From: Acidobacteriota bacterium
GTDB lineage: Bacteria; Acidobacteriota; Thermoanaerobaculia; Multivoradales; Multivoraceae
Direction of reading: 5' to 3'
DNA: 64,000 bases
NCBI GenBank assembly: GCA_039026915.1
Contig: JBCCLJ010000007.1
Coordinates: forward strand, 3,651-67,650
The translations under genes and the position numbers were made by a program. This document shows, piece by piece, positions 14,812-64,000 of the stretch (within the stretch, counting starts at the first letter, position 1; each line of letters opens with the position of its first letter). The notes under the pieces were generated by a model. The model ran no database searches, was not told the origin of the DNA, and was given only the letters and a program-made list of their open reading frames with translations.

Positions 14812-14946
14812 ACCCGGTCTTCGAGGTCGCTCCGCCGATCAGGGATCGGTGGGCGGACTCGCAGCGGCCCGGGAGGCCGCGGAGCAGAAGGCTCGGGGTG
14901 TTCGGACAACGTCGAATCTGCGAGGAAACCTCGTAGACTCTGCAGT

Positions 14947-22724: not shown

Positions 22725-22765
22725 GGGCTAAACCTCCAGGGCGTGCTGCCCGGGATCAGAGAACT

Positions 22766-23509: not shown

Positions 23510-23520
23510 GGCGAATGACC

Positions 23521-24090: not shown

Positions 24091-24134
24091 GAAGGTGAAT
24101 CCTTGGGAAGTGCGATGCATGGTTCGGTATCGCT

Positions 24135-25388: not shown

Positions 25389-25441
25389 CTTGGCGTTCTC
25401 GGAGTTGTCGTGATTTCGGTCCGGTCGTGCGGTGCCCGTCA

Positions 25442-25999
25442 TCACAGGGCCTTGTACATGCGCAGGGTGACCTGCTTGCCGGGGCTCATGCCCGAGGGGG
25501 GAGCTCCGACCTGGACCTCGATCTCCTTGAGGTGCACGGCCTGCGGATCGGCGCTGGCGTCGAGGAGCTCGGATGCATCCAAGACGCCGTCGGCGAGCGC
25601 GTTCATGCTGAACTGCCGCACCGTGACCGTGCGCTCGAAGGTGTCGATCTCGGTGCTCGGAAAGCTGCTGACGTCGTACCAGCGCTTCGAGTCCTTGGAC
25701 CACTTCTCGTTGCGTACGAGTTCGTTGCCGGCGATCAGTGTCAGGGCCGGGTCATTCGCAGGCAGCTGGATCATGCGCTCGAGCTCGGAGCGGGCGAGGT
25801 TCGTCGCCTCGGTTGCCTGCTTGCCCTGCAGATTGTTGGTGATCGAACGCGTGAACATCGGCAGAATGCCGACGCTGACGATGAGCAGCAGCGCGGCGGC
25901 GATGAGCACCTCGATCAGGGAAAAACCGGAGGGTTCTCGGTCGAAGAGCGGGCTTTCGGAGCGCGGGCGTGTCGGGGATGGAGCGAGCATCAGAACCAC
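25442..25999 (-). CDS. pilV: Type IV pilus minor pilin PilV-like
   Basis: The prepilin N-terminus is ...REPSG|FSLIEVLIAAALLLIVSVG. Start at the GTG at 25999 or the ATG at 25990. It overlaps the upstream fimT-like gene. Confidence 0.65.
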   Translation of the reverse strand: MVLMLAPSPTRPRSESPLFDREPSGFSLIEVLIAAALLLIVSVGILPMFTRSITNNLQGKQATEATNLARSELERMIQLPANDPALTLIAGNELVRNEKWSKDSKRWYDVSSFPSTEIDTFERTVTVRQFSMNALADGVLDASELLDASADPQAVHLKEIEVQVGAPPSGMSPGKQVTLRMYKAL

Positions 26000-39135: not shown

Positions 39136-41531
39136 GTGTGGGCTCTGGTGGAGCGCAGCGCCTTGATGCGCAGCTTTCTGCAGCGCAACGGCTGGATGCT
39201 GCCGTCGATAGGGCTCCTGACGGTCGCGTTCTGGCCGCTGATCTCCGGCGCCAGGACGCTGTTTCTGAGAGACGTCTTCAACCTGCACCTGCCGCTCAAG
39301 ATCGCGCAGGTGCAGAGCTGGGCCGAGGGTCGCCTCCCGCTGATCGATCTGTCGCGCGCCGGCGGACAGCCGCTGCTGGCGAATCCCAACGCGGTCGCCC
39401 TCTACCCAGACAATCTCCTCTACGCGGTCGCGCCTCTGTACTGGGCGTTCAACGCACACTTCTGGCTCCACGCCCTGCTGGCGCCGCTGGCCGCCTACTG
39501 GCTCGCGCGCGAGGCGCAGCTCGATCGAGGGCCGGCCTGGCTCGCCGGAGTCTCCTACGGCGTGTCCGGCTTCTTCCTCTCGCAGCTCAACTTCTACAAC
39601 CTCGTCGCGGGTGTGGCCCTCGCTCCGGCGATCGTGGCGGCGCTGCTGCGCGCGCAGCGGTTCGAATCGGCGGGGGAGTCGCCTCGTTACGGCTGGGTCG
39701 TCGCGTCCGCGCTGACGGCGCTGCTGCTCTTTGCCGGGGATCCCATCGTTCTGGTGCTGACCCTGGTCGCCGCGGCGGTCGTGGCGGCCGCGCTCTCCGG
39801 TTGGAGCGACGCGCCCAACGTTCGCAGTCTCGTTCCGATCGCGGTGGCGATGCTGGCGGCCGCGCTCCTGTCGGCGGTCCAGTGGGTTCCGTTCCTCGAG
39901 ACGCTGCAGCTCTCGTTTCGCGGCCACCAGGGCTACGGTGCGGCCGGAGCACTGGCGGCGAGCTGGGATCCTCGAACTCTGATCGAGTGGTTCGTGCCGC
40001 TCGCCTTCGGCCATCCGAACCTGGGCTTCTGGGGTCAGGCGTTTCACGGCGGCGATCTGCCGCTCTTCTTCTCCCTCTACCCGGGAGCGCTGGCTCTGAC
40101 TCTGGTGCTCTGCTCGGGTCTGCCGGGGCGCGAACAGGGTCTGCCGCGCGTTCGCTGCGTCGGATGGTTACTCGTCTTCGCAGGGCTCTTCGTCGCCTTG
40201 GGAAGCGCGAACCCGGTCGTACGCTGGGCGACACAGCTTCCCGGCAGCGGTCTGCTTCGGTTTCCGGTCAAGGCCTGGCTCTGGGTGGCGCTCGGTGGCA
40301 GCCTTCTCGTCGGCTGCGGGGCCCAGCGGGCCCTGGTCGACCGCCAGCTGCGCGACCTGGCCCGCGCGGTCGGTGTGTCGCGTTGCTCTTCCTGGCACTG
40401 GCGGCGGGTGCGCTTCAGTTCAGCGCGGGATTCGACGGCTGGCTCGAAGCGCAGGGAGTCGGGGGGAGAGCGCCCGAGATTCGGCCACGCTGGATCGGCC
40501 TCAGTCTGCTGGGAGCGCTGATCGCCGGGCTCGTCGGGTGCCTCGCGCGGTGGACGCGACCCCGGGTCGCAGCATCGAGCCTCGCAGCGCTGCACGTCGC
40601 CTCGCAGCTCCTGCTGCTGCAGCCGCTCTTCGAGAGTGACGCGGTCGATGCCTATTCGGAGGAGCCCAAGGCGCTTGCCTACACACAGGCCGGTGAACGG
40701 CTCGTGCAGGGCGGCGTCTTCGAGCTGTTCGGTCCCCACAGCGCTTCGGTGGCCTTTCCTTCACGCTCTCTGCGCTGGGTCCAGCGCCGCGGCTGGGAGG
40801 AGCTCTACCCGTTCGCCGGGATCCAGTTCGATCGGCACTACGACCTCAACGTTTCCCCCGAGGGTCTCGACGCCTTCCTGACGCAGATGACCGCCCAGGC
40901 GGCGAGGTCCTGGAATGACGCACGTCGCATCAAGCTGCTCCAGGTGCTCGGCGTCGACGCCCTGATCGTCGATCGCCCTCTGGAGCCGGAGGGGCTGGCC
41001 TCACTGCGAGGTGAAGTCGAGAACTTCGGTGCCGTGGCCTACGTCTACGGCCTCGATCCCTTGCCCGAAGTGCAGCTTCTCGAGGAGATCGTGCGGGCGC
41101 CGCATCTCAACGCATCGTTCGAGGCTCTGCTGAACCCTGCGTTCGACCCGCGCCGCGCCGTCGTCGTACCCGGCGCTGGCGCTCGCGCCGTCGTCGAGAG
41201 GGCGGAAGGGGAGAGGCCTCGAGGCTCGGTGATCGATGTCCGGGAGTCGGGTGACCGGCTCGAAGCGACGGTGCGTGCCGAAGCCCCTTCCGTTCTGCTC
41301 GTGCAGCGAGCCCACCTGGGCCAGTATCGAGCGTCGCTCGACGGGGATCCGGTTCCGGTGGTCGCAGGCAACGTCAGCCGCGTCGCCGTCGAGGTCCCGC
41401 CCGGAGTGCACGAGATCGTGCTCTGGGTGCCCCGCACCACCGTGGCGCTCGGCGCCGCGGGGCTGCCTCTCGGAGCTCTCCTGTGCCTGTGGCTCGTGCG
41501 TCGCACCGAGCCGTCGAGAAGCGTGGCATGA
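39136..41531 (+). pseudogene. YfhO-like (GT-C) large membrane protein, copy 1. The reading frame is interrupted by a single-base frameshift near 40380, either a pseudogene or a sequencing error.
   Basis: Track ORFs 39136..40521 (frame 1) and 39138..41531 (frame 3) each carry half of a protein colinear with the two intact downstream paralogs. Homology switches frame between ...RDLARAVGV and LLFLALAAGALQF. Confidence 0.5.
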
Positions 41532-43900
41532 CGAACGAGGCGCAGAGTCCCGGACCCGAGCTGGAGGCGCAGAATCCGTCGAGCGCGAAGGAGCCTCGCG
41601 CTGCGGTTCTCCTCCTGCCGGTCACTGCGTCGCTGCTGCTCTCCATGCTGCCGCTGATCCTCGGCACGCAGACGCTCTTCCTGCGCGACCTCACGTCTTT
41701 CCACCTGCCGGTCAAGCACGTTCAGGCCGAAAGCCTGAGGGATGGGAGGGTCCCGCTCCTCGATCCGACGCGCGGTGGCGGCCAGCCGATGGTCGGCAAC
41801 CCGAACACCGTGCCGCTCTATCCGGACAATGCTCTCTATCTGCTGGCTCCGACGCTGTGGGCGTTCAACGCCCACTTCTGGATTCACCTGCTGATCGCGC
41901 CGTTCGGCATGTTCTGGCTGGCGCGGCGATGGGGCCTGTCCGTCACGGGCGCCGCGGGCGCCGCGACTTTCTGGGGCACGAGCGGCTTTCTCCTCTCCCA
42001 GATGAACTTCTACAACCTGATCGCGGGAACCGCTCTGGTTCCCGCGTTTCTCGCGGCCGTGCTCGCGCTGCTCGAAGATCGGCCGAAGGCGTGGCGAATG
42101 CCGACGGTCGCCGTGCTCTGGTCGCTGCTCATCCTCGGTGGAGATCCGATCCTGGCGGCGCAGGCCGGCCTCCTGTTGGTCGTGCTCGTCGCGCTTCGCC
42201 TCGGAGGCTCGCTGCCTCTGCGACGTCTCGGCGCGGTCGTGGTGGCGCTCGGTCTCGGAGTCCTGCTGGCTCTTCCGCAGATCGTCGAGTTCTTCCGCAT
42301 CCTGCCTCTCTCGTACCGCGGCTACTGGGGCTACGACGCGGAGACGATCCTCGTTGCGAGCCTGCACCCGCTTTCGCTCTGGGAGTGGCTGCTCCCCTTT
42401 GCGTTCGGTCGCCCGTCGTTGGGCTTCTGGGGAGCCCCGCTCTTGGGCGGCTCCGGCGCCGCCCTCTTCTGGAGTCTCTTTGCGGGCGTCCTGGCGGTGA
42501 TCAGTCTCTTCGCCAGCGGTGTGCCGAGAGACCGACGTCGACTCGGTCTCTGGGTTCTCCTCCTCTTCGGTCTCTTTCTCGCCCTGGGCGGCTACAACCC
42601 GGTGGTTCGTGCGTTGGCAGCCGTGCCGGGCTTCTCGCTCGCTCGCTATCCGGTGAAGTTCGTTCTGCTCGTCGCGGTGGCCGCGAGCCTGCTCGCGGGG
42701 CGTGGATTCGAGCGCCTGCGTGAAGCCGGAGCGCTACGCGGTTTCGTACGCGCCGCGTCGGCACTGACGCTCGTCTACGTGGCGACGGCGGCGCTCGCTC
42801 TCCAGCCCGAGAGCTGGCTCGCCGCGGTCATCGGACGAGCCACCAACAACCCTCTGCGCGCTCAGCAGGTGCTGCAGAACTGGCTGGCGATGTCGGTCTT
42901 CCTGATCGTCCTCCTCTGGGGTGGGATCGGCTGCCTGTCACTCGCCCGACGTCGCCCGACGCTCGCCGCGCTTCTGTTTCTGATGCTGCATGCCAGCTCG
43001 CAGCTCTTTCTCCTCGAGTCGCTGCTGCAGATGGACGATGCTTCCTTCTTCGCGCAGCCGCCGGCTCTTGCGACGGAGCTTTCCGAACGGCGCGTCGTGC
43101 ACGAAGAATCCGGTGCCTTCGGGAGCCGGCGTGCCCCTCGGCAGCTGCCGAACGGCGAGCTGCAGTGGCTCGCTCGTCGTCTTTGGGGCGAGTCGCGATA
43201 CGCGTCCGGCGCCTTGGCGGGCTTGCGGTTCGAGCTCAATCGGTCGCCGGAGGGGCTCGATTCTTTCCTGGATCGCATGGCCGCTGACGCCTTGCGCGCG
43301 CGGCCCGACGCGGACCGGATCGTGCTCGCGCGGGCTCTCGGTGCCGAGGTCCTCTTGCTGGATCGGCCTCTGCCAGCGAGCGAGGTGTTGACGTTGCGCA
43401 AGACGGTGCCCAGTTTCGGAGCGACGCTCCATGCGTACGACGTACGGGACGCTCTTCCTGCGGCCTCCCTGCTGACGGAAGAGTGGCCCGCCCCGCATCT
43501 CAACGCTGCGATCGACATCCTCTCGAACCCCGAGTTCGATCCGCTGCGCGCAGTGGTCGTTCCGGGCGAGGGGCCGATCGCGCGTCGCGGTGAAGGCACG
43601 GTGGAACTGCTCGAGGACTCGCCGGAGCGTGTCGCACTGGACGTCGACAGCCCGGAAGGCGGCGTCCTGTTGCTGCAGAGGTCTTTTCAGCCGCTCTACC
43701 GGGCGACGATCGAGGGCGATGAAGTCGAGGTTTTCGCCGCCAACCTGAGCCGGCTCGGCGTCCGTGTCCCCGGCGGCCGGCATCGCGTCGTGGTCGAGGC
43801 GGATCGCAGGCCGTTTCGACGTTCGGTCTCGGTCGCTCTGTGGACGCTCGTTCTGCTGCCGTGGCTCGGCAGGCGCAGCGCTGGAGTGCTCGAGGCTTGA
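41528..43900 (+). CDS. YfhO-like large polytopic membrane protein (putative GT-C glycosyltransferase), copy 2
   Basis: It has the N-terminal motif QTLFLRDLTSFHLPVKHVQAESLRDGRVPLLDPTRGGGQPMVGNPNTVPLYPDNALY, about 13 TM helices and a C-terminal soluble domain of about 330 aa. An ATGA overlap joins it to copy 1. Confidence 0.6.
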   Translation: MTNEAQSPGPELEAQNPSSAKEPRAAVLLLPVTASLLLSMLPLILGTQTLFLRDLTSFHLPVKHVQAESLRDGRVPLLDPTRGGGQPMVGNPNTVPLYPDNALYLLAPTLWAFNAHFWIHLLIAPFGMFWLARRWGLSVTGAAGAATFWGTSGFLLSQMNFYNLIAGTALVPAFLAAVLALLEDRPKAWRMPTVAVLWSLLILGGDPILAAQAGLLLVVLVALRLGGSLPLRRLGAVVVALGLGVLLALPQIVEFFRILPLSYRGYWGYDAETILVASLHPLSLWEWLLPFAFGRPSLGFWGAPLLGGSGAALFWSLFAGVLAVISLFASGVPRDRRRLGLWVLLLFGLFLALGGYNPVVRALAAVPGFSLARYPVKFVLLVAVAASLLAGRGFERLREAGALRGFVRAASALTLVYVATAALALQPESWLAAVIGRATNNPLRAQQVLQNWLAMSVFLIVLLWGGIGCLSLARRRPTLAALLFLMLHASSQLFLLESLLQMDDASFFAQPPALATELSERRVVHEESGAFGSRRAPRQLPNGELQWLARRLWGESRYASGALAGLRFELNRSPEGLDSFLDRMAADALRARPDADRIVLARALGAEVLLLDRPLPASEVLTLRKTVPSFGATLHAYDVRDALPAASLLTEEWPAPHLNAAIDILSNPEFDPLRAVVVPGEGPIARRGEGTVELLEDSPERVALDVDSPEGGVLLLQRSFQPLYRATIEGDEVEVFAANLSRLGVRVPGGRHRVVVEADRRPFRRSVSVALWTLVLLPWLGRRSAGVLEA

Positions 43901-53076: not shown

Positions 53077-53823
53077 ATGATGTTTTCGGTTTCGAGATCC
53101 GTGCGTCCGGCGGTCCAGACGCTCCTCCTGTTGCTGACGTTCTGCCTTGGTGCGAGCGCGGCGGCTCAGGAAGAGGTCGAGACGCTGGTCCGGCTGGACT
53201 TCCAGCTTCGGCATCAGCCGGCTGATGACGTCATGACCGTGCTCCAGCCGCTGCTCTCCGGGCAGGGACGGGTCGAGATCGATCGTCAGACCCGGCGTGT
53301 CGTCGTTCGAGACCACCGCTCGAACATCGAACGTATCGTCGAGGGGCTCGAAGGATTCGACCATCCGGTGAGGTCGCTCGGATTCGACGTCATCCTGTTG
53401 CGGGCGACCCGATCGACCGACCCGGATCTGCGCAAGATCAACGAGCGCGTTCTGCCGAGCACCGTGGTCGAGAGCCTCGGTTTCATGCTGACGCAGAACC
53501 TGTACAGCCTGGTGGCGCGAACCGAGCTCGAAGGTCGCGAAGGCGAGCGCGTCACCACGCCTCTCGGTGAAGAGCGCGTCGTGCGCATCGCGGTGGGCAC
53601 CGTGCTCGAAGACGGCTATGTTGCGCGACTGCCGGTTCACTTTCAGCTTCATCGCAAGGAGCGCCCGGAGGCGAGTGGCTTCAATCAGGCCCTCAATCTG
53701 CACCTCGACAAGACCGTGGTCATCGCTCTGGCTTCAGACGCCGACGCCCAGAGCGGCTGGGCGATCGCCGTCACGTCACGGCAGCTCTCGGAGCTGACGC
53801 TGCCGCGGCCGGGCGAGGAGTAG
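53077..53823 (+). CDS. Secreted periplasmic protein with secretin-N/BON-like beta domains, putatively associated with the secretion cluster
   Basis: It has a signal peptide (MMFSVSRSVRPAVQTLLLLLTFCLGASAAAQ). TLVRLDFQLRHQPADDVMTVLQPLLSGQGRVEIDRQTRRVVVRDHRSNIERIVEGLEGFD resembles a secretin N-domain fold. It is the first gene of the gspF-gspE block. Confidence 0.4.
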   Translation: MMFSVSRSVRPAVQTLLLLLTFCLGASAAAQEEVETLVRLDFQLRHQPADDVMTVLQPLLSGQGRVEIDRQTRRVVVRDHRSNIERIVEGLEGFDHPVRSLGFDVILLRATRSTDPDLRKINERVLPSTVVESLGFMLTQNLYSLVARTELEGREGERVTTPLGEERVVRIAVGTVLEDGYVARLPVHFQLHRKERPEASGFNQALNLHLDKTVVIALASDADAQSGWAIAVTSRQLSELTLPRPGEE

Positions 53824-53827
53824 CCGA

Positions 53828-55039
53828 GTGGAGTTCGTCTGCCGTGTCGGTACGCCGGACGGCCGTGTCGTCGAGCAGGTCCTGGAAGCCCCGCACGAAG
53901 GCGCTGCGCGCGGCGACCTCGAGGGGCGTGGGCTGCACGTCTTCGAGGTGAGGCAGCGTGGCTGGTCGCTCGCTTCGCTGCTCGAGCGTGACGGCCGGCG
54001 TCGACCCATCAAGGACGTCGACTTCATGCTCTTCAACCAGGAGCTCGCGAGTCTGCTGAAAGCCGGTCTGCCTCTCCTGCAGGCTCTCGACATGATGCTC
54101 GAGCGTCAGCGTGACCCGAGCTTCCGCAAGGTGCTCGAAGAGATCCGGGATCGAGTGCGTAGTGGTGAGGAGCTGTCGACGGCCTTTCGTGCCTTTCCCG
54201 ACGTCTTTCCGCCCCTCTATGCGCCGACGCTGATGGCGGGCGAGCGTAGCGGCGACCTCGAGCAGGTGATTCGCCGTTTCGTGCGCTACCTGCAGCTCGT
54301 CATCGACACGCGGAAGAAGGTCGTCTCGGCGCTCACCTACCCGGTCTTTCTGATTCTCCTGGCGCTCGTCATGCTCGTCGTCATGGCCGTCGTCGTGATC
54401 CCGAAGTTCGAGGTCTTCTACGAAGCGATGGACGTCGAGCTGCCGACGCCGACGGCGATCCTCCTGTCGACGTCGATCTTTCTGCAGAACAACTTCTGGC
54501 TCCTGGCCGTCGGCTTGGTGATCGGCTACCTTGCGGCGCGACGCTGGCTGCGGACGGAAGTGGGCCGCCGGCTCTACGACCGGTGGCGACTCAGGATCCC
54601 CGTGGCCGGCGCCATCCTGCATCGCTTCTCCGTCTCCGAGTTCTGTCGATCGCTCGGTACGCTGCTGGCCGGAGGCATGCCGCTCGTTCCCTCGTTGGAG
54701 GTCGCGGTCGACGCCATCTCGAACGCGCATCTGCGCGAGCGTATGGCGCCCGTCGTGCCGGCAGTTCGCGAGGGCGCGCCTTTTCACCACTCGCTGGACC
54801 AGACCGGAGTGTTCGACGACCTGGCGATCGATCTGGTGAAGGTCGGCGAGGCGACCGGCGCGCTCGACGAGATGCTCGTCAATGTCTCGGACTTCTTTGA
54901 CGAGGAAGTCGAGACCCGCACCCAGCGCATGCTGTCGCTCCTCGAGCCGATCATGCTCGTCATCATGGGCGTCACCGTCTGCCTGCTGCTGATGGCGATG
55001 TATCTACCGCTCTTCTCGGTCCTGGGGAGACTGGAATGA
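53828..55039 (+). CDS. gspF: Type II secretion / type IV pilus platform protein (GspF/PilC family)
   Basis: It has two T2SSF domains and 3 TM helices, with the motif GLPLLQALDMM, ...GERSGDLEQV... and ...GEATGALDEML.... A GTG start at 53828 is preceded by GGCGAGGAG. Confidence 0.85.
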   Translation: MEFVCRVGTPDGRVVEQVLEAPHEGAARGDLEGRGLHVFEVRQRGWSLASLLERDGRRRPIKDVDFMLFNQELASLLKAGLPLLQALDMMLERQRDPSFRKVLEEIRDRVRSGEELSTAFRAFPDVFPPLYAPTLMAGERSGDLEQVIRRFVRYLQLVIDTRKKVVSALTYPVFLILLALVMLVVMAVVVIPKFEVFYEAMDVELPTPTAILLSTSIFLQNNFWLLAVGLVIGYLAARRWLRTEVGRRLYDRWRLRIPVAGAILHRFSVSEFCRSLGTLLAGGMPLVPSLEVAVDAISNAHLRERMAPVVPAVREGAPFHHSLDQTGVFDDLAIDLVKVGEATGALDEMLVNVSDFFDEEVETRTQRMLSLLEPIMLVIMGVTVCLLLMAMYLPLFSVLGRLE

Positions 55040-55112: not shown

Positions 55113-56765
55113 ATGACGACCGAAGAACCGACGACCGAAGTCCTCCAACCGCTTGCCGACGGCGAGTTCGATCCGTCTCTGGGCACGGACGAAGAGCGTC
55201 GTCAGAGCCAGCAGCTCGCCGAACGCTTCGGCTTCGAGTGGGTCGACCTTCGTCACTACCGCATCGACAACGACCTCTTCCATGGAGTGCCGTTCGATCT
55301 GATGCTCCGCTACCTCTTCTTGCCGGATCAGCAGCTCGACGGGCGCATGCGCGTCGTCATGGCGGACCCGTCCGACGTCGTGCGTCTCGACGAGCTCGAG
55401 CTGCAGATGGGCCAGCCGCTCGAGGCCCAGGTCGGCGAGGCGGCGCTCATTCGAGAGATCCTGCAGAAGTCGGAGAGCGCGCAGCGCGTCCTCGACGAGG
55501 CGACGGAAGATTTCCGTATCCAGCTCGTTCAGGAGGACGACGACGGTGACGAGGTCCTCTCGATCGATCGCATCAGTTCGGATCAGAGTCCGATCATCAA
55601 GCTCGTCGACTCGACGCTCTTCAACGCGATTCAGCGCCGCGCATCGGATATCCACATCGAGACGCGCGAGGCCGAAGTGGTCATCAAGTACCGCATCGAC
55701 GGCGTGCTCTACCAGGCGATGGAGCCGATCGACAAACGCCATCACCAGACGATCATCTCCCGCATCAAGGTCATGTCCGAGCTCGACATCGCCGAGAAGC
55801 GCATTCCGCAGGACGGTCGATTCAAGCTGCGACTCGCGGGACGAACCATCGACTTCCGCGTGTCGATCATGCCTTCGGTCCACGGCGAGGACTGCGTCAT
55901 CCGAATCCTCGACAAGGAGTCGATGAACGACGAGTTCAAGAACCTGCGCCTCGACGTCCTCGGCATGAACGAAAACACCTTGCGCAAGCTGCGGAAGTTC
56001 ATCCGTGAGCCCTACGGCATGGTGCTCGTCACCGGGCCGACGGGTTCCGGTAAGACGACGACGCTCTACGCATGCCTCTCCGAGATCCAGAGCTCGGAAG
56101 ACAAGATCATCACCATCGAAGATCCGGTGGAGTACCAGCTGCGCGGCATCACGCAGATTCCGGTCAACGAGAAGAAGGGGTTGACCTTCGCGCGTGGGCT
56201 GCGTTCGATCCTGCGTCACGATCCGGACAAGATCATGGTCGGTGAGATCCGAGACGAGGAGACGGCGCAGATCGCCATCCAGTCGGCGCTGACCGGTCAC
56301 CTCGTCTTCACCACGGTTCACGCCAACAACGTGATCGATGTTCTCGGTCGCTTTCTGAACATGAACGTCGACCTGTACAACTTCGTTTCGGCGCTCAACT
56401 GCGTGCTGGCACAGAGACTCGTGCGGCGCATCTGCGAGTCGTGCCGTCGGGAAGCCATCGTCGACGACGAGCTCTTCGAGGAGAGCGGGCTCGACCCTGC
56501 GCAGTACCGCGACGTGACTTTCTATGAAGGTGCCGGATGCATGGAATGCAACGGCACCGGTTTCCGCGGCAGGTTGGCGGTTTCGGAGCTGCTCGATCTG
56601 TCAGACAATATCCGCGAGCTGATTCTCGACCGTCGTCCCGCTTCCGAGATCAAGCGCGCTGCGCACGAAGAGGGCATGTCCTTCCTGCGCGAATCGGCAC
56701 TCGAGAAGGCACTCGAGGGAGCTACCACTCTCCGTGAAATCAACAAGGTCACTTTCGTGGATTGA
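55113..56765 (+). CDS. gspE: Type II secretion / type IV pilus assembly ATPase (GspE/PilB family) with N-terminal T2SSE_N domain and C4 zinc finger
   Basis: It has Walker A GPTGSGKTT, Asp and His boxes, and a tetracysteine motif CESCRRE...CMECNGTG. The N1E-like N-terminal domain reads RVVMADPSDVVRLDELELQMG. Confidence 0.9.
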   Translation: MTTEEPTTEVLQPLADGEFDPSLGTDEERRQSQQLAERFGFEWVDLRHYRIDNDLFHGVPFDLMLRYLFLPDQQLDGRMRVVMADPSDVVRLDELELQMGQPLEAQVGEAALIREILQKSESAQRVLDEATEDFRIQLVQEDDDGDEVLSIDRISSDQSPIIKLVDSTLFNAIQRRASDIHIETREAEVVIKYRIDGVLYQAMEPIDKRHHQTIISRIKVMSELDIAEKRIPQDGRFKLRLAGRTIDFRVSIMPSVHGEDCVIRILDKESMNDEFKNLRLDVLGMNENTLRKLRKFIREPYGMVLVTGPTGSGKTTTLYACLSEIQSSEDKIITIEDPVEYQLRGITQIPVNEKKGLTFARGLRSILRHDPDKIMVGEIRDEETAQIAIQSALTGHLVFTTVHANNVIDVLGRFLNMNVDLYNFVSALNCVLAQRLVRRICESCRREAIVDDELFEESGLDPAQYRDVTFYEGAGCMECNGTGFRGRLAVSELLDLSDNIRELILDRRPASEIKRAAHEEGMSFLRESALEKALEGATTLREINKVTFVD

Positions 56766-57681
56766 GCGCGCGCTCGGTGCCGAGCCTCTTTCGGTACCGC
56801 CGCACGTCTTCTATCTCGGTCCGGACGCCCTGCTGTACGCGCAGGTCGACACGGCCGAGGGCGTCAGCGTGGGGCCGTCACGCGTTGCCGAGCTCGAGCC
56901 GGAGACCTTTCTGCCGGGGCAGCTCGGCGGCCCCCTGAAGGAGCCAGAAGCCTTCACCGGGCTGCTGCGCGGACTCGTCTCCGAAATCGGCGAGATCGAC
57001 TCGGCTTCGCTCGTGCTCCCCGACGCCTGGTACAGGCTGGTCTTCGCCGAGGTCGACCAGCTGCCTTCGGCTGCGGCGGCGCGCGACGAAGCGCTGCGTT
57101 GGAAGCTCAAGCGCCTGGTTCCCTTCCGCGTGGAAGATCTGCGGCTCGACGCCGTGAACGCCGTGCCGCTAGCGGGTCAAGAAGATCCCGGGCGCGTCAT
57201 GATCGGCTTCGCTGCGCAAGCGCTCCTCGAGCAGTGTGAAGCCGCCTTCGCTGCTGCCGGAATTCGCCTCGGCGCGATCACCAACGTGACGCTCTCGGTA
57301 GCCCACCTGATCGAGCCGGTCGCAGCAAACGAGATCGGCCTGCTGCTGGTTGCTCAGGACGATGGATACTCGCTGCTCGCCAGCCTCGGAGAGGCGCCGG
57401 TCCTGTACCGGTACAAGCCGCTCGACGCGGGCGCCGGCGCCGGCCGCGCTCAACGCGAAATGCTGCTGACGTCGCGCTTTCTGGAAGAGCGGCTGGCGCA
57501 CTACGAACTGTCACGGGTCGTCGTCGTCGGCTCCGATCGCTGGTCTTCGGTCGTTGGCGAGTCGCTCGGTATCGAGCCCCAGGTCCTGGAGGCCGAAGAC
57601 TGGCGCGATCTGCTGTCGTCCCAAGCCGACTCCGTGCTTCGAGCGGCACTCGTCGGGGCCGCGCACGTGGAGGTCGCCTGA
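56734..57681 (+). CDS. PilM / GspL-cytoplasmic-domain-like assembly protein
   Basis: It is 315 aa and soluble, and occupies the position of pilM/gspL immediately after the ATPase gene. It has conserved-looking segments (SLVLPDAWYRLVFAEVDQLP, ALRWKLKRLVPF). The start is uncertain; the GTG at 56734 overlaps gspE by 32 nt. Confidence 0.45.
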   Translation: MKSTRSLSWIERALGAEPLSVPPHVFYLGPDALLYAQVDTAEGVSVGPSRVAELEPETFLPGQLGGPLKEPEAFTGLLRGLVSEIGEIDSASLVLPDAWYRLVFAEVDQLPSAAAARDEALRWKLKRLVPFRVEDLRLDAVNAVPLAGQEDPGRVMIGFAAQALLEQCEAAFAAAGIRLGAITNVTLSVAHLIEPVAANEIGLLLVAQDDGYSLLASLGEAPVLYRYKPLDAGAGAGRAQREMLLTSRFLEERLAHYELSRVVVVGSDRWSSVVGESLGIEPQVLEAEDWRDLLSSQADSVLRAALVGAAHVEVA

Positions 57682-57683
57682 TC

Positions 57684-58652
57684 GTGAGGAACCTCCCGAA
57701 TCTGGCGGCTCGACCGTTCGTCAACGACCGCCCCGTACGGCGCCTCATCGGCGTACTCTGGGGTGTCGCGGTCCTGCTGTTGCTCTTCAACGCCTACCGC
57801 TACTGGCGCTACGCCACGACCAACGTCGAAGGTCGCGATCAGCTTCAGTCGATCCGCGACGAGACCGACCAGGAGCTCGAGACAATCGACGAGCTGCGGA
57901 CTCGGCTCGCGGGCTTCGATCTGCGCTCCCAGAACGACGAGATCGACTTCCTCAACCGCCGCATCGCCGAGCGCTCGTTCCCATGGAGCGAGCTCTTCGA
58001 ACAGCTCGGAGATGTGCTGCCGCGCGGCGTGCGTGTGCGCTCCCTCGCTCCGCAGCTGCCGGAGCCACAGCGTCAGCGTCGCCGTCGTCGCCCAGCGGAA
58101 GAGACGCGGGTCACTCTGGCGATCGACGGCACGGCCGAGGACGGTGAAGCGCTCCTCGATTTCGTCGATCGTCTCTTTGCCCACCCTGCCTTTGCCCAGC
58201 CGCTGCTCGAGAGAGAGTCGCGTCAGAACGACTCGCTGATCAACTTCAATCTCGAGACCTACTACCGACCCCGCCTCGAGGCGCCGGAGGAGGAGGCAGA
58301 GGCGCCGGAGGAGCTCGTCGCGGAGACAGCCTCGGACGCCGACGAGGTCGCTGCCGGCGCCGCGACCTCCGTGGCGTCCAGCCGCGTCGAGTCCGCTGAG
58401 CCCGCTCTCGACACTGCAGACGACGCGCCTCGCGACACCGCTGACGACCCGAGCCCGAACGCTTCGACGGTCGCTGGCCGGGACGCGGAGGTCAGGCAGG
58501 GTCGACGCACACCTGAAGCTGCCGCCGAGAGCCGTTCTGGTGTGCGGAGTCTGAGCCCCGGCTCGAGAGACCTGCCGACGCCACGAGAAGATGCCGCGGT
58601 ACCGCGCCGAAGTCGCTCCAACGCCAGCTCGCCGCCGGGAGGAGCACGATGA
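57684..58652 (+). CDS. PilN / GspL-periplasmic-domain-like protein with a long disordered acidic C-terminal tail
   Basis: The N-terminus (M)RNLPNLAARPF resembles the PilN INLLP motif. It has a single TM helix (LIGVLWGVAVLLLLF), a coiled-coil, then about 120 aa of Ala/Glu/Asp/Pro/Ser-rich low complexity. Confidence 0.45.
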   Translation: MRNLPNLAARPFVNDRPVRRLIGVLWGVAVLLLLFNAYRYWRYATTNVEGRDQLQSIRDETDQELETIDELRTRLAGFDLRSQNDEIDFLNRRIAERSFPWSELFEQLGDVLPRGVRVRSLAPQLPEPQRQRRRRRPAEETRVTLAIDGTAEDGEALLDFVDRLFAHPAFAQPLLERESRQNDSLINFNLETYYRPRLEAPEEEAEAPEELVAETASDADEVAAGAATSVASSRVESAEPALDTADDAPRDTADDPSPNASTVAGRDAEVRQGRRTPEAAAESRSGVRSLSPGSRDLPTPREDAAVPRRSRSNASSPPGGAR

Positions 58653-59260
58653 ATCCGTCATCTCTCCTGCGTTCGCTCCGCTCCCTCCCGTGGTGGGTGT
58701 GGGCCGTCCCCGCGGTTCTCGTAGTGGTCAACCTCGGTGCGCTGATCTACTACCAGATCGGCTACGCCGGACAGTTCGGTCAGATGCAGGGTCAGTTGGA
58801 CTCTGCCAAGAACGAACGTTCGTTGGTCATGGCGCAGCGCCAGGCACTCGAAGAGCTCGTCGGTCGTGCGAACACGGGCCGCGAAGGCATCGAGTCGCTC
58901 TACGTCGACAGTTTTTCGACAGAGAGTGAGCGCCTGACGCGGATGATCCGAGAGGTGAAGGATCTCGCCGAAAAGGCAGGTCTGCAGCCCGCCGAGACGA
59001 TCAGCTACCCCGAAGAGTCGATCGACGACTACGGGCTGCTGAAGCGCTCGCTCGTCTTCACGGTGAACGGAACCTACCCTCAGCTGCGACAGTTCGTGAA
59101 CTTTCTGGAGCTCTCCGACACCTTCGTCGTGCTCGAGAAGGTCAACGTCTCCGGGGTCTCGCCGAGCCTCGCCGTTTCCTTCGACATCTCGACGCTCTTC
59201 TCGGGTCGTGACAGTGCCGAAGAGCGGATCGACCGTCGCCGCCGTCGGAGGAACGCGTGA
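58649..59260 (+). CDS. PilO / GspM-like protein
   Basis: It has one N-terminal TM helix (WWVWAVPAVLVVVNLGALIYY), a coiled-coil and a C-terminal alpha/beta domain. Size and position fit PilO/GspM. Confidence 0.45.
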   Translation: MNPSSLLRSLRSLPWWVWAVPAVLVVVNLGALIYYQIGYAGQFGQMQGQLDSAKNERSLVMAQRQALEELVGRANTGREGIESLYVDSFSTESERLTRMIREVKDLAEKAGLQPAETISYPEESIDDYGLLKRSLVFTVNGTYPQLRQFVNFLELSDTFVVLEKVNVSGVSPSLAVSFDISTLFSGRDSAEERIDRRRRRRNA

Positions 59261-59829
59261 GCGAGTCTCAGCAGCGGATCGTTCTGGCGGTACTCGGCCT
59301 GATCCTCGTCGTCATCGTGGGGCTGCGCGTCCTTCCCGCCCTGCGCGGCTCCGGCGGCGAGCGCTGGTGGCAGCAGGGCGGCTCGCGAGCGGTCTTCGAC
59401 GACGAGCTCGACGTGGAGGTTCTGGAACTGCAGACGCGGTTGCTGCGCGCAGAGCCACGCGAGTTCGCCGTCGGCCGAGACCCCTGGCGCTTCGGTGAGG
59501 CACCCAAGCCTCCGGCGCCGAAGCCGAAGCCTCCTGCTCCCAAGCCCAAGAAACAACCGAAACCCAAGCCCCCGAAGCCGGTCGAAACGGGACCGGTGGA
59601 GCCCCCCAAGCCGAAGCCGCCGGAGGTCGACGTGACCTTCCTCGGTACCTTCGGCCCTGCGGATCGCAAGATCGCCGTCTTCTTCGACGGTAGCGCGATC
59701 TACAACGCAGGCCGCGGTGACGTACTCAACGAGAAGTTCCAGGTGGTGGAGATCGGCCTCGAGTCGGTCGATCTCGGCTTCGTGGGATTCCCAGACGAAC
59801 CGCCGGCGCGCCTGGCGATAGGTGGATAG
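59257..59829 (+). CDS. PilP / GspC-like protein with a proline/lysine-rich linker
   Basis: It has a TM helix, a (PKPKPPAPKPK)n linker and a C-terminal beta domain (VTFLGTFGPADRKIAVFFDGSAIYNAGRGDVLNEKFQVVEI). It lies immediately upstream of the secretin. Confidence 0.45.
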   Translation: MSESQQRIVLAVLGLILVVIVGLRVLPALRGSGGERWWQQGGSRAVFDDELDVEVLELQTRLLRAEPREFAVGRDPWRFGEAPKPPAPKPKPPAPKPKKQPKPKPPKPVETGPVEPPKPKPPEVDVTFLGTFGPADRKIAVFFDGSAIYNAGRGDVLNEKFQVVEIGLESVDLGFVGFPDEPPARLAIGG

Positions 59830-59847
59830 ATGACGCATTTGCAGACA

Positions 59848-62334
59848 ATGAACCGCAGCGCACGAGCCGATCGCCGGCCCCGGCGTCTTTCCGCCGCGCT
59901 CTGCCTCGCGGCTCTGATGCTGGCCGGCTGCAGCGGCTACAGCAGCTTCCGTCGCGCTCAGGTTGCCGAGCAGATGGGCGACTGGGACCAGGCCGTGCTC
60001 GAGTACATCGAGCTCTCGCGCCAGAACCCGGGTGATCTGCGCTACCGCGCAGCTCTGATGCGCGCCAAGATCAACGCCTCCGTCTTTCACTTCGGAAAGG
60101 CGAAGGACTACCGCGAGGCAGGGCTGCTGACGCCGGCGATGGTCGAACTGCGCAAGGCCGTGGAGCTGGATCCGACGAACCAGTACGCTCGCGCCGAGCT
60201 CGAAAAGGTGCGCGATCAGATCGAGGCGCAGCGTGCCGGTACCGAGTCGCAGACCCTGGCCGAGGCCAAGGAAAAGACGCGAGGCGCCATGCCGCAGCCT
60301 CCTGAGCTGAGCCCGCGGTCGCCCGAGCCGATCGGACTGAACTTCCCCGAGGCCACCTCGGTGATGCAGATCTACCAGGCTCTCGGCAAGGCCTTTGGAA
60401 TCAACGTGCTGTTCGACCCGAAGCTGCGCGACCAGGAGATCAGCATCACCCTGACCGACGTGACGGCGCAGGACGCTCTCGAGATCCTGATGCGCACGGC
60501 AGGCCACTTCTACAAGGTGCTCGACGAGCACTCGATCATCGTCGTCGCCGACACGCCGCAGAATCGCCGCAACTACGAGGACCTCATCATCCAGACCTTC
60601 TTTCTCTCCAATTCGGATGTGAAAGACGTGATGACGATGCTGCGGAGCCTCGTCGACTCTCGCAAGATCGCGTCGAACGAGCAGCTGAACGCCATCGTCC
60701 TGCGCGACACCGCCGACAAGGTCAAAGTCGCGGAGCGCATCATCCAGGCCAATGACAAAGCGAAGGCCGAGGTCGTCGTCGACGTCGAGCTCCTGCAGCT
60801 CAATACGAACCTGCTACAGGATCTAGGTCTCTCACTGAGCGCTTACCAGATCGGCTCGGAGCTCGACAACGGCGGCGCCGACGTGCCGCTTCGCTTCAGC
60901 GACCTCGAGTTCATCGACGGCAACAACTGGGTGCTGTCGATTCCCAGCTTCATGTTCGACTTCGTGAAGCAGAACACGGAGGCGCAAACGCTGGCTCAGC
61001 CGAAGTTGCGGATCAGCGAGGGTGAACGCGCTACGTTGACGATCGGCGACCAGGTGCCGATTCCCGTGGTCAGCTTCAACACCGCCAACACCGTCGGCAG
61101 CAACGTCGTGCCGTTGACCTCCTTCCAGTACCAGGACGTGGGCATTCAGATCGAGATCGAGCCTCGGGTGCACCACAACGAAGAGGTCTCGCTCCAGCTC
61201 CGCGTCGAGGTCAGCAACATCTCTGGAGAACGCGACGGTCAGCCGATCATCGGCACGCGCAACATCGAGACGACGATCCGTCTGAAGGACGGCGAGACCA
61301 ACTTCCTGGCCGGTCTCATCCGTACCGACGAGACCAACAGCGAAGAGGGCATACCCGGCCTCGCCGAGATTCCGGTGCTCGGTCGACTCTTCTCGAAGAA
61401 GCGCTCGCAGAACCAGCGCACCGACATCGTCCTGACGATGACCCCGCACATCATTCGCAAGGCCAACATCACCGAAGAAGATCTGATGCCGATCTGGGTT
61501 GGTACCGAGTCGAACATCACCTTCCGCGGCGGCAGCCCGAGAGTGGAGTCCGAGGTCGACGGTCCCTTCGACGAGTCGAGCGGTGGCGAGGATGGAGATC
61601 TGCGTCGCCAGATTCGTCAGCTGCCGCGCGGTCTGCGCGAATCGGCCGCGGAGGAGCCCGAGGAGGGCGACGACAACGCGCCGCCGCCGGGCGTCGACCT
61701 CGTACCGGTCACTCGTCCGCCGCGCGACGTGAGCTTCGAGGTGCCACCGGCTCTACGCGACATGGGCTTTGCTCCGGTGCGCGGTCTGCCGTTGTCGGCG
61801 CCCTGGGCGCAGCTCATGACCGCCCAGTCGGCGAGCGATCCGAGCGACCGGCTGGCGATCCCCGGCGCGGCTGCGGTGCGCGCTCGCCTGGCGCCGCGCC
61901 GCGTCCAGGCGCAGCCGGGCGGCCTCTTCGCCATTACCCTCGACCTCGACGCCAAGGGAGAGGTCTCCCACGTCCCCGCTCGCCTCCGCTATGACACGTC
62001 GGCGCTCGAGCTCGTACAAGTGTCACAGGGAGACCTGTTGGACCGCGATGCTACCGAGACGATGAGCTTCGATGAAGGAGGAGAGATCATCCTGGGCGTG
62101 AGTCAGTTCGGCGATCTGGCCGGACGCAGCGGCAGCGGCAGCGCTGCCGTGCTCGTCTTCCGGGCTCTCGGTCAGGAGAGCCAGACGCTCGTCGAGCTGC
62201 TGGAGGTCGAGGCGATCGGCCGTGACCTCCGCCCGCTGACGACCGGCGTCGGGCGTCGCGCCATTCCGGTGAGCGTCTCCTCCTTCCCCGATGGCGGGCC
62301 GATGGGAGGCGACCGCCGAAGGACGATCGAGTGA
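59848..62334 (+). CDS. gspD: Secretin (GspD/PilQ family) lipoprotein with N-terminal TPR region and a roughly 250-aa C-terminal cohesin-like extension
   Basis: It has a lipobox (LMLAGCSG) and a canonical secretin C-domain (GETNFLAGLIRTDETNSEEGIPGLAEIPVLGRLF...RTDIVLTMTPHII). I set the start at M7 (59848). Confidence 0.85.
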   Translation: MNRSARADRRPRRLSAALCLAALMLAGCSGYSSFRRAQVAEQMGDWDQAVLEYIELSRQNPGDLRYRAALMRAKINASVFHFGKAKDYREAGLLTPAMVELRKAVELDPTNQYARAELEKVRDQIEAQRAGTESQTLAEAKEKTRGAMPQPPELSPRSPEPIGLNFPEATSVMQIYQALGKAFGINVLFDPKLRDQEISITLTDVTAQDALEILMRTAGHFYKVLDEHSIIVVADTPQNRRNYEDLIIQTFFLSNSDVKDVMTMLRSLVDSRKIASNEQLNAIVLRDTADKVKVAERIIQANDKAKAEVVVDVELLQLNTNLLQDLGLSLSAYQIGSELDNGGADVPLRFSDLEFIDGNNWVLSIPSFMFDFVKQNTEAQTLAQPKLRISEGERATLTIGDQVPIPVVSFNTANTVGSNVVPLTSFQYQDVGIQIEIEPRVHHNEEVSLQLRVEVSNISGERDGQPIIGTRNIETTIRLKDGETNFLAGLIRTDETNSEEGIPGLAEIPVLGRLFSKKRSQNQRTDIVLTMTPHIIRKANITEEDLMPIWVGTESNITFRGGSPRVESEVDGPFDESSGGEDGDLRRQIRQLPRGLRESAAEEPEEGDDNAPPPGVDLVPVTRPPRDVSFEVPPALRDMGFAPVRGLPLSAPWAQLMTAQSASDPSDRLAIPGAAAVRARLAPRRVQAQPGGLFAITLDLDAKGEVSHVPARLRYDTSALELVQVSQGDLLDRDATETMSFDEGGEIILGVSQFGDLAGRSGSGSAAVLVFRALGQESQTLVELLEVEAIGRDLRPLTTGVGRRAIPVSVSSFPDGGPMGGDRRRTIE

Positions 62335-62831
62335 GCTGGCGCGCGCATCTTCGGCAGCGCCGCGCGTCTGGAGGTGCCGTGGCCTCGGCCGGCTACACGC
62401 TGGCCGAGCTGATGATGGTGTGCGCCATTCTGGTCACGCTGGCCGCGGTGACCTTCCCGGTGGCCAAGTTCACCCAGAAGCGCATCAAAGAAGCGGAGCT
62501 CAGGGCTCATCTACGCACGATGCGCAACGCGATCGACGAGTACAAGCGCTTCAGCGACGCCGGTCTCATCCCTTTGACGCTCGGCTCCGACGGCTATCCG
62601 AAGGACATGGAGACGTTGCTCGAGCCTCAGGACATCGTCGGTCAGATCGACCGCCAGATCCGTTTTCTGCGTCGTGTTCCTGTCGATCCGATGACCGGCG
62701 AGGCTGAGTGGGGGATGCGCTCGACGCAGGACGAGCCGGACTCCGAGAGCTGGGGCGGGGAGAATCTCTACGACGTCTACTCTCTGAGCGGCAGCGTCGG
62801 TCTGAACCGAGTGCCCTACTTCGAATGGTGA
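62331..62831 (+). CDS. GspG-like pseudopilin (second copy)
   Basis: It has the prepilin N-terminus ASAG|YTLAELMMVCAILVTLAAV and GspG-like core motifs (RFLRRVPVDPMTG, NLYDVYSLSG). A GTG start overlaps the secretin stop. Confidence 0.6.
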   Translation: MSWRAHLRQRRASGGAVASAGYTLAELMMVCAILVTLAAVTFPVAKFTQKRIKEAELRAHLRTMRNAIDEYKRFSDAGLIPLTLGSDGYPKDMETLLEPQDIVGQIDRQIRFLRRVPVDPMTGEAEWGMRSTQDEPDSESWGGENLYDVYSLSGSVGLNRVPYFEW

Positions 62832-62866
62832 CGGCGCCCTCTCGGCGAACGAATGGAGAGCTTTCG

Positions 62867-63316
62867 ATGAACCCGACCCCGTCACGCACGATCCGCGTCC
62901 AGACCACGGCGCAGAGCGGCTTCACACTGCTCGAGCTGATCATCGTGGTCTCGCTGATCGGCATTCTTGCGGCGATCGTGCTGCCGAACCTGATCGACAA
63001 GCCGACGCGAGCCAAGGAGGCCGTGCTCAAGCAGAACCTGCGGACGATGCGCGACGCGTTGGACCAGTTCTACGCCGACAAGGGCAAGTATCCAGGCGAT
63101 CTCCAGGAGCTGGTCGAGTCCAACTACCTGCGCTCGATGCCGCTCGACCCGATCACCGGCAGCCAGGAGACCTGGATCGCGGTCTACGAAGAAGCGGGCG
63201 AGGAAGAGAGCGAAGACTTCTACGAAGAAGGCGAGAGCGAGCCCGGAATTGTCGACGTGAAGTCGGGATCCGAGCTGGCCACCCTCAACGGTGAGGGTTT
63301 CTACAGCGAATGGTGA
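62867..63316 (+). CDS. gspG: Type II secretion major pseudopilin GspG
   Basis: AQSG|FTLLELIIVVSLIGILAAIVLPNL plus AKEAVLKQNLRTMRDALDQFYADKGKYP and YLRSMPLDPITG are GspG hallmarks. I set the start at the ATG at 62867, preceded by a GGAGAG Shine-Dalgarno. Confidence 0.8.
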   Translation: MNPTPSRTIRVQTTAQSGFTLLELIIVVSLIGILAAIVLPNLIDKPTRAKEAVLKQNLRTMRDALDQFYADKGKYPGDLQELVESNYLRSMPLDPITGSQETWIAVYEEAGEEESEDFYEEGESEPGIVDVKSGSELATLNGEGFYSEW

Positions 63317-64000
63317 CCCCCGCAGGCGGGCCGCGACGTCGCGTGGGAGAGGAGGGCTACAACCTCGTCGTCCTGACGCTGATCGTGCTCTTGATGAGCG
63401 TCGCTCTCTCGCTGGCGTTGCCGGCGTGGTCGGCTCAGGCCAAGCGCGAGAAGGAGCAGGAGCTGATCTTTCGCGGCCTGCAGTACGCGGAGGCGGTGCG
63501 GGTCTTTCAGGCTCGCCACGGTCGACTGCCGACGACGCTCGAAGAGCTGGTCGAGGTCGAGCCCCGCAGCATCCGTCAGCTCTTCCCAGAGCCGATGTCG
63601 GAGAACGGCAAGTGGGGACTGCTCGTGCAGTCTCAGACGCCGCGAGGCCAGGGGCGCGGCCGCCGCGGACGCGGGCGCGGTCAGCAGCCGAATCAGCAGG
63701 GGCAGGAGGGCGCCGCCCCTGGAGGAGGGGCGAACGCCGGTGCTGGCGGAGGAGAAGCTGGCGAGGCGGGTGCTCCCGGCGAGGGCGCACAGCCCGACGG
63801 GGGCGGCGCGCAAGCCGGCGGCCAGCAGTCCGGTGGGTCACAGGCCTTTCCCGAAGGCAATGCAGCGGTCAATCCCTTGCTCGGCGGTGGCGGTGGCAAC
63901 CGGATGAACGTCGTCAAAGTTCCGCCGAGTCAGGGCACCGAGGAAGGCTTCGGTCGGCGCAGCAACGTGACCGCTGGCCCGATCGTCGGCGTCTACAGCG
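63313..64000 (+). CDS. Minor pseudopilin (GspH/I/J/K-like) with a Gly/Gln/Ala-rich low-complexity region; 3' end truncated by the window
   Basis: My own translation from the GTG at 63313 (overlapping the gspG stop, GTGA) gives ...GEEG|YNLVVLTLIVLLMSVALSLALPAW..., a prepilin-type N-terminus. It continues open to the window end and is not in the ORF track because no stop is present. Confidence 0.5.
   Translation, partial: MTPAGGPRRRVGEEGYNLVVLTLIVLLMSVALSLALPAWSAQAKREKEQELIFRGLQYAEAVRVFQARHGRLPTTLEELVEVEPRSIRQLFPEPMSENGKWGLLVQSQTPRGQGRGRRGRGRGQQPNQQGQEGAAPGGGANAGAGGGEAGEAGAPGEGAQPDGGGAQAGGQQSGGSQAFPEGNAAVNPLLGGGGGNRMNVVKVPPSQGTEEGFGRRSNVTAGPIVGVYS

Follow-up and report, generated by a model that had tools for sequence, protein, structure and literature searches.

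The 64,000-nucleotide stretch of Acidobacteriota DNA analysed here (the window) encodes a secretin that is fused to a pilotin-like module and bears a cohesin on a tether. The gene lies at positions 59830..62334 on the forward strand and specifies 834 amino acids (aa) in one open reading frame (ORF). The architecture is firmly established as real, conserved and unusual. In brief, three modules are joined in one polypeptide: a lipoprotein signal with tetratricopeptide repeats (TPR), a secretin core, and a post-secretin segment that leads via a tether into a cohesin-fold domain. Sequence comparisons place the gene as the outer-membrane (OM) secretin of a divergent, operon-encoded machine resembling a type II secretion system (T2SS) and related to type IV filaments. 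We suggest that the protein is a liposecretin that pilots itself and is surrounded by a ring of tethered periplasmic cohesins, which dock a partner; to this reading we give about an even chance.

The original prediction, made from the sequence alone, had placed the gene at 59848-62334. The end is identical, whereas 59848 corresponds to Met7 in the same frame and the ORF opens at 59830. From the N-terminus, the parts are a lipobox, the TPR module, an N0-like domain, one Secretin_N domain, the secretin domain, a conserved segment, a linker and the cohesin. When the full-length AlphaFold2 (AF2) model was compared with the PDB using Foldseek, secretins and cohesins were the only matches. Neither the fold nor the sequence matches in the PDB included a secretin-cohesin fusion; they consisted of plain secretins and stand-alone cohesins only, in line with the earlier view of such an extension as unusual. 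The literature searched yielded no description of the fusion. One item naming both GspD and cohesin concerns giant genes of Omnitrophota and was set aside as unrelated. NCBI names some members of the family "cohesin domain-containing protein".

The secretin pore domain comprises residues 379-543 (60964..61458, forward strand). It matches Pfam PF00263 at E 4.6e-42 and 143.9 bits against a cut-off of 27.5, which assigns the protein to the secretin superfamily. The Pfam boundary at residue 543 falls within TMTPHIIRKANI (residues 536-547), where the domain had been predicted to end. The Secretin_N domain, of the N1/N3 type, covers residues 255-313 (60592..60768, forward strand) and matches PF03958 at E 1.4e-9; its score of 38.4 bits against a cut-off of 28.2 qualifies it as an N-domain of the secretin superfamily. 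Residues 168-240 (60331..60549, forward strand) form a beta-alpha-beta fold in the AF2 model, with a pLDDT score (the predicted local distance difference test) of about 90, and residues 191-237 weakly match Pfam STN. From its position and fold pattern, this part is probably an N0-like domain. The Pfam scan of the secretin found no AMIN domain.

The closest solved relatives of the pore are the T2SS secretins GspD/XcpQ (5wln, E 3.8e-21), and the fold matches of the full-length model include InvG, PilQ and GspD. The best-scoring NCBIfam model is the GspD equivalog TIGR02517, which matches the pore region only, with 159.8 bits against a cut-off of 351.35. The PilQ model TIGR02515 gives 111.1 bits against 284.35. 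The protein appears to work like a GspD-type secretin, yet by these scores it falls short of both the GspD and the PilQ equivalog.

Few parts of the protein are as conserved as the approximately 80 residues following the secretin domain. In this segment (residues 544-626; 61459..61707, forward strand), 14 positions are invariant across 98 sequences, namely D551, L552, I555, W556, V557, G558, T559, F565, G578, P579, F580, L598, P599 and P626, and the family alignment shows about 81% identity over residues 541-580. AF2 predicts short helices at residues 549-559 and 588-596 and has low confidence in the rest of the segment, and residues 520-640 matched no PDB sequence. We propose, by analogy only, that the segment is the counterpart of an S domain and would pack in the same manner on the outside of the barrel. 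Possibly it represents a novel S-domain type, or else a clasp between subunits.

Beyond this segment lies a Pro/Ala/Glu-rich linker predicted to be disordered (residues 627-682; 61708..61875, forward strand; pLDDT <50). It has low occupancy and identity in the family alignment and varies in both sequence and length. Among 49 ORFs holding both motifs, the distance from the LPRGL motif (around residue 602) to the start of the cohesin is 56-138 aa, with a median of 95, and the spacer consists of 19% P, 13% A, 11% E and 10% G. The post-secretin extension thus exists as originally described, but it is 291 residues long and not about 250.

The cohesin domain occupies residues 683-816 (61876..62277, forward strand) and is identified by Pfam, a PDB profile search, AF2 and Foldseek. 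In the full protein, Pfam Cohesin PF00963 matches residues 691-786 with 22.8 bits, below the gathering score of 24.1. The C-terminus alone reaches 26.6-26.8 bits (E ~7e-6), above that score, and the C-terminal segments of 28 of the 30 aligned homologues match the same family, the best at E 8.1e-13. A profile built from the cohesin family alignment matched cohesins only among PDB sequences, including the non-cellulosomal cohesin of Archaeoglobus fulgidus. AF2 folds residues 676-834 into a nine-strand jelly roll (pLDDT 90.6; predicted template modelling score, pTM, 0.83), and in the full-length model residues 683-816 have a pLDDT >94. All of the top 50 Foldseek matches of the C-terminal model in the PDB are cohesins, with E down to 5e-10 and TM-scores of 0.7-0.8. 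Membership in PF00963 is therefore indicated both by the gathering score of the isolated C-terminus and by the nine-stranded jelly-roll fold. The beta-rich block in which the original prediction saw a cohesin or a carbohydrate-binding module (CBM) corresponds to residues 697-797, inside the PF00963-matching domain. The cohesin call was right; no CBM family appeared in the Pfam or PDB results, and the confident cohesin fold (pLDDT 90.6) excludes a disordered or unfolded extension.

Cellulosomal cohesins bind dockerins through the 8-3-6-5 sheet. The family-invariant residues of the cohesin are H714 and P716 on strand 3 and G751, G756 and S758 on strands 5-6, the strands being taken from the model; as modelled, they lie on strands of the 8-3-6-5 sheet.

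When only the C-terminal 155 residues were used as the query, a word-index homology search gave no match. An exhaustive HMMER search with the cohesin profile gave 14,964 representatives at E <=0.001, and those of the strongest single-domain matches that were checked against Pfam are fragments or full copies of the same secretin family. The top proteins of this search (P0121-P0130) contain 4-10 tandem cohesins, and several also have CarboxypepD_reg and a C-terminal sorting domain of the type IX secretion system (T9SS). They are cellulosome-like scaffoldins of T9SS-bearing bacteria, and one of them, P0122 (2276 aa), ends in a dockerin. As partners of the secretin, these multi-cohesin T9SS-tailed proteins were set aside as generic members of the cohesin family, since nothing ties them to the genomes considered here.

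The same 834-aa ORF is found, identical, in an NCBI Acidobacteriota metagenome-assembled genome (MAG; GCA_038748275.1) and in an independent Logan assembly. The family scan used one genome per species; it gave no fewer than 512 matched stretches in which a relative of the secretin is encoded, and the best 80 loci were examined. Most of these bear the label Thermoanaerobaculia or Acidobacteriota, with Candidatus Multivorans, Multivoraceae and Multivoradales among them, and a few carry the MAG labels Holophagales, Vicinamibacteraceae, Deltaproteobacteria or Polyangiaceae. The C-terminal cohesin is present in 76 of the 80 species-level loci, closed chromosomes included; closed genomes with the fusion are, for instance, OY969474.1, OZ250177.1 and OZ242222.1. 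Across the junction, the GC content climbs from about 0.60 to 0.72, and one might suspect that a secretin gene and a cohesin gene downstream of it were joined only by misassembly or faulty gene calling. This rise is, however, expected from the Pro, Ala and Gly codons of the linker, and the ORF is uninterrupted, yields the same protein in two assemblies and recurs as a fusion across these species. We regard an artefact, which the original prediction had named as a possible objection, as virtually inconceivable.

Four loci do not encode the cohesin. One of these is cut by a contig edge. The other three, from Candidatus Multivoradales MAGs and an uncultured bacterium, encode secretins (L074:9929-11881, L075:9533-11890 and L079:9908-11914) that end directly after the conserved motif GV[DE]L[AV]P. 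They retain the lipobox, the TPR, the pore and the post-secretin segment, and their operons are otherwise intact. Because these three variants are without the linker and cohesin only, we consider the cohesin a detachable accessory module and not part of the pore. The three lineages can serve as natural deletion controls.

The N-terminus starts with a signal peptide and an L-A-G-C lipobox (59830..59931, forward strand; the Cys34 codon is 59929-59931). Cys34 is invariant in 120 of 120 homologues, with G, A or S at position -1 and S, T or A at position +2, and is the predicted site of lipidation. The TPR module (residues 38-135; 59941..60234, forward strand) is defined by the TPR profile and the AF2 helices and is followed by a 32-residue linker. 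Pfam gives several weak TPR matches over residues 40-120, the family profile of the region matches consensus TPR proteins at E 8e-21, and AF2 predicts confident helical hairpins (pLDDT >90). The lipobox and TPR region of the original prediction are thus real and conserved.

The accessory lipoprotein TraC takes part in outer-membrane exchange. In Myxococcus xanthus, TraC is described as an OM lipoprotein with three TPRs that is thought to assist surface proteins (PMC8546572). Residues 12-150 of the secretin (59830-60280 in the window) align to the N-terminus of M. xanthus TraC (NCBIfam, E 1.1e-10), and this hints at an OM-associated TPR module common to both.

The invariant lipobox and TPR resemble a TPR lipoprotein pilotin that has been fused to its client. 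We suggest that the lipidated TPR module would take the place of PilF, PilW and Tgl, which are separate lipoprotein pilotins with TPRs, or of the lipid anchor that HxcQ carries. PMC12475490 describes HxcQ as a liposecretin that is self-piloted by its lipid anchor, and as the only secretin reported to need no pilotin. Since the lipobox and TPR are real and conserved and HxcQ provides a precedent, self-piloting is a reasonable prediction for the function of the module. No gene for a small lipoprotein (pilotin) was seen among the operon gene calls, which were not systematically scanned for lipoboxes.

The ligand, location and function of the cohesin we infer from an architecture that is itself firm. 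Pilotin lipoproteins sorted by the Lol pathway face the periplasm from the inner leaflet of the outer membrane, as seen in pilotin-secretin structures. In GspD secretins, a pilotin of this kind attaches to the C-terminal S domain (PMC10329019). The post-secretin sequence, read by eye and not computed, is hydrophilic and has no obvious membrane-crossing element. Because secretin S domains are bound by periplasm-facing pilotins and the post-secretin sequence is hydrophilic, the tethered cohesin is most likely located in the periplasm, and the extracellular placement in the original prediction is unlikely.

Dockerins were searched for in the window with a calcium-loop regular expression in six frames; the one match lies in an unlikely frame, and none is credible. 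The neighbourhood scan covered 84 sequences of 1.63 Mb in total. It used a hidden Markov model (HMM) built from two dockerin sequences and the dockerin of P0122, and is accordingly crude. The check for dockerin-bearing proteins proposed at the outset thus found none in the window or in the scanned neighbourhoods of the related loci. The scan also gave no second cohesin ORF, and the dockerin partners and scaffoldin genes that accompany the cohesin in a cellulosome-type system were not found in the 84 sequences. Since no dockerin was detected in the neighbourhoods and none of the operon genes disappears with the cohesin, the partner is probably encoded elsewhere in the genome.

In the mechanism that we propose, about 12-15 subunits, each with one cohesin on a long tether, would form a periplasmic crown of docking sites around the channel. 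The cohesins would bind a helical dockerin-type or other peptide ligand on the partner. This partner could be cargo, concentrated at the entrance of the machine by fly-casting capture, or an envelope protein that positions or stabilises the machine. It is improbable, in our view, that the crown is a tag receptor, in which cargo or surface proteins with a dockerin-like or short helical tag are captured by the cohesins, either in the periplasm at the channel entrance or, given an unorthodox topology, at the cell surface.

Several points weigh against a self-piloted secretin with a periplasmic cohesin crown. Lipidation and the pilot function are predictions, and PilF, PilW, Tgl and TadD are not among the 60 best TPR-profile matches listed, in which generic TPRs are found. 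The AF2 monomer has no confident structure for residues 560-680, so that packing of this region on the barrel is a guess. The periplasmic location is carried over from other secretins, and every characterised cohesin that we know of is extracellular. It should also be noted that the crude HMM and the regular expression detected no dockerin in the 1.63 Mb around 83 related loci, a result that applies to neighbourhoods only, and that the presence/absence profile of all operon genes revealed none that is lost along with the cohesin.

Instead of docking a partner encoded elsewhere, the cohesin could act in cis and bind a component of the same machine, of the cell wall or of the OM, forming a peripheral ring that stabilises or positions the secretin. 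The binding site might be a neighbouring subunit, the TPR module, the operon protein with only a Secretin_N domain, or the PilP/GspC-like protein. Other secretins are stabilised or positioned by AMIN domains, TsaP and GspAB. Peripheral rings or belts around secretins are known in other bacteria (PMC10828601), as for PilQ bound by TsaP in PDB 6ve2. A cis role would agree with the strict co-conservation of the whole operon with the secretin, with the presence of an extra operon protein that has a Secretin_N domain only, and with the failure to detect an external dockerin in the neighbourhoods. The three cohesin-less lineages, however, retain all operon partners unchanged, the full-length AF2 model, with its very low confidence in the linker, offers no hint of packing between the cohesin and another part of its chain, and a tether of about 95 residues exceeds what a fixed ring needs. 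We consider such a role rather unlikely. The jelly-roll fold is common to cohesins and CBMs, so the beta-sandwich might bind peptidoglycan, lipopolysaccharide or exopolysaccharide and not a protein, as the mention of a CBM in the original prediction implied. GspD-type secretins have been linked to the export of slime polysaccharide (PMC12475490). Against this, the significant sequence and fold matches are all cohesins and include no CBM family, and glycan binding seems very improbable.

Surface display would place the cohesin outside the cell, where it would hold dockerin-bearing enzymes or adhesins at the secretin mouth in the manner of an anchoring scaffoldin. It is favoured by the origin of every matched cohesin structure in an extracellular system, by the Pro-rich linker, which is typical of scaffoldins, and by the abundance of the same Pfam family in multi-cohesin T9SS-tailed proteins, one with a dockerin. 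Arguing for the periplasmic side are the Lol-sorted pilotins that bind known secretin S domains and the hydrophilic post-secretin sequence, which by eye holds no obvious membrane-crossing element. Moreover, 12-15 tethers threaded through the channel would, we reason, block the gate, and no dockerin was found in any neighbourhood scanned. Display at the surface is, on balance, decidedly improbable.

To our knowledge, it is poorly understood how a T2SS recognises folded cargo, and how a secretin arrives and assembles in the OM without a pilotin. The protein joins a pilotin-like lipidated TPR module, a pore and a dedicated protein-docking module in one chain. Should cargo prove to be the ligand of the cohesin, a modular targeting tag would be known for the first time from a T2SS-like machine; should the ligand be an envelope component, the protein would represent a new way of anchoring a secretin. 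The tag-receptor reading, if true, would give a type II-like system a modular, sequence-encoded signal for recognition or retention, and we know of no such recognition signal for the T2SS. The protein would also widen cohesin biology by a cohesin that is anchored to a secretin, probably in the periplasm, of a diderm bacterium. Annotations of the cohesin fold exist in databases already, and the advance lies in its context and in the hypothesis, not in a new fold.

The secretin gene is part of a 13-gene T2SS-like operon that is syntenic in essentially all related loci and is flanked by LpxK/KdtA and dUTPase. All coordinates given for the operon refer to the forward strand. The first gene (51856..52488; Pfam Sigma70_r2, Sigma70_r4_2 and Sigma70_ECF) is syntenic and encodes an extracytoplasmic function (ECF) sigma factor. 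It is followed by a gene in conserved position for a putative anti-sigma factor (52485..53057; weak NCBIfam match, E 1e-3). In every related locus, these two genes head the operon, a hint that the machine is expressed in response to a signal. The next gene, also conserved in the operon, encodes a periplasmic signal-peptide protein with a Secretin_N domain only and no pore (53077..53823; Pfam E 3e-9). A GspF/PilC-type platform protein (53828..55039) matches Pfam T2SSF at E 6e-60 and the NCBIfam GspF model with 328 bits against a cut-off of 424. A GspE-type ATPase (55113..56765) matches T2SSE at E 2.5e-131 and the GspE model with 541.7 bits, below its cut-off, and has an N-terminal MshEN domain (E 2e-13). 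The MshEN-type domain binds cyclic di-GMP in MshE and, by analogy, may be a regulatory input here.

Four assembly-platform genes (56734..59829) lie between the ATPase and the secretin, with weak T2SSM_b and GspM matches among them. They are a PilM-like gene (56734-57681), a PilN-like gene (57684-58652; PilN Pfam E 3e-5), a GspM/PilO-like gene (58649-59260; weak T2SSM_b/GspM matches) and a gene for a Pro-rich transmembrane protein resembling PilP and the GspC HR domain (59257-59829). Only position and sequence pattern underlie the PilM-like and PilP/GspC-like labels. Compared with its counterpart on an NCBI MAG contig of the same organism (L001:7807-8823), the PilN-like gene is shorter by 16 codons (48 nt); the difference falls in a low-complexity Ala/Glu/Pro-rich region and could be due to assembly or strain variation.

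Downstream of the secretin, three pseudopilin-like genes (62331..64000) were delimited with the gene calls of contig L001, at 62331-62831, 62867-63316 and from 63310 onward past the end of the window. For the first two, GspG is the best match (E 9e-7 and 6e-16); a prepilin N-methylation motif is present in the second. In the third, the N-terminus resembles that of a pilin and one region is rich in Gly. No minor pseudopilin of the GspH-K type was recognised among the operon genes, and the operon gene calls include no PilT-type retraction ATPase. The best NCBIfam matches in the operon are T2SS components (GspD, E, F, G twice, and M), all below their equivalog cut-offs. By its gene content, we assign the machine to the type IV filament superfamily as a divergent T2SS-like member.

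Elsewhere in the window, a 1407-aa PilY1-like protein with a von Willebrand factor A domain is encoded at 18501-22724 and a PilW-like minor pilin at 24135-25703, both on the negative strand. Both appear to belong to a tip/minor-pilin cluster (18501-25703) of a type IVa pilus, which would be a different system from the one encoded by the T2SS-like operon. A PAS histidine kinase is encoded at 26791-28581 on the negative strand. A 513-aa esterase or alpha-beta hydrolase with fibronectin type III (35000-36541, negative strand) is possibly exported; no dockerin was seen in it. At 39138-46311 on the positive strand, three consecutive putative ORFs of about 800 aa (39138-41531, 41483-43900 and 43840-46311) have no Pfam match, and neither do the long ORFs opposite them. 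ORFs for the selenocysteine synthase SelA and a sigma-54-dependent response regulator (14377-17702, positive strand) overlap by about 570 nt, and the listed start of the regulator ORF is probably too far upstream.

Among known systems, GspD (P. aeruginosa XcpQ, 5wln; E. coli/Vibrio GspD, 5wq7 and 5wq8) gives the best sequence and fold matches of the pore, the operon partners match GspE, F, G and M best, and a segment follows the secretin domain where GspD has its S domain. The GspD of M. xanthus is at least 863 aa long (PMC12475490). The protein described here differs in having an N0-like and one N domain in place of N0-N3, an N-terminal TPR module with a predicted lipid anchor, and a C-terminal linker with a cohesin. 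Its post-secretin segment has no sequence similarity to any solved S domain, and its platform is split into PilM-, PilN-, PilO- and PilP-like genes.

Like HxcQ, the secretin has its own lipoprotein signal, and no pilotin gene was seen in the operon; HxcQ is not known to have a TPR module or a C-terminal cohesin. The type IVa pilus proteins PilF, PilW and Tgl and the Tad pilus protein TadD are likewise secretin-associated and consist of an OM lipoprotein signal followed by TPRs. The module described here is, in contrast, covalently fused to the secretin and short, with about 100 residues and approximately three repeats, and its profile matches generic TPRs and not these proteins specifically. 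TraC shares the N-terminus of lipobox and TPR, but has an unrelated C-terminal domain and no secretin, and the match is limited to residues 12-150.

The C-terminal domain shares the nine-strand jelly roll and PF00963 with known cohesins (P. cellulosolvens ScaB Coh7, 4ums; C. thermocellum OlpC, 4dh2; A. fulgidus, 2xdh), and as in anchoring scaffoldins it is joined to an envelope anchor by a Pro-rich linker. It differs from them in its low sequence identity (12-20%), in occurring as a single copy per chain, in its probably periplasmic location, and in its anchor, which is a secretin in a diderm bacterium.

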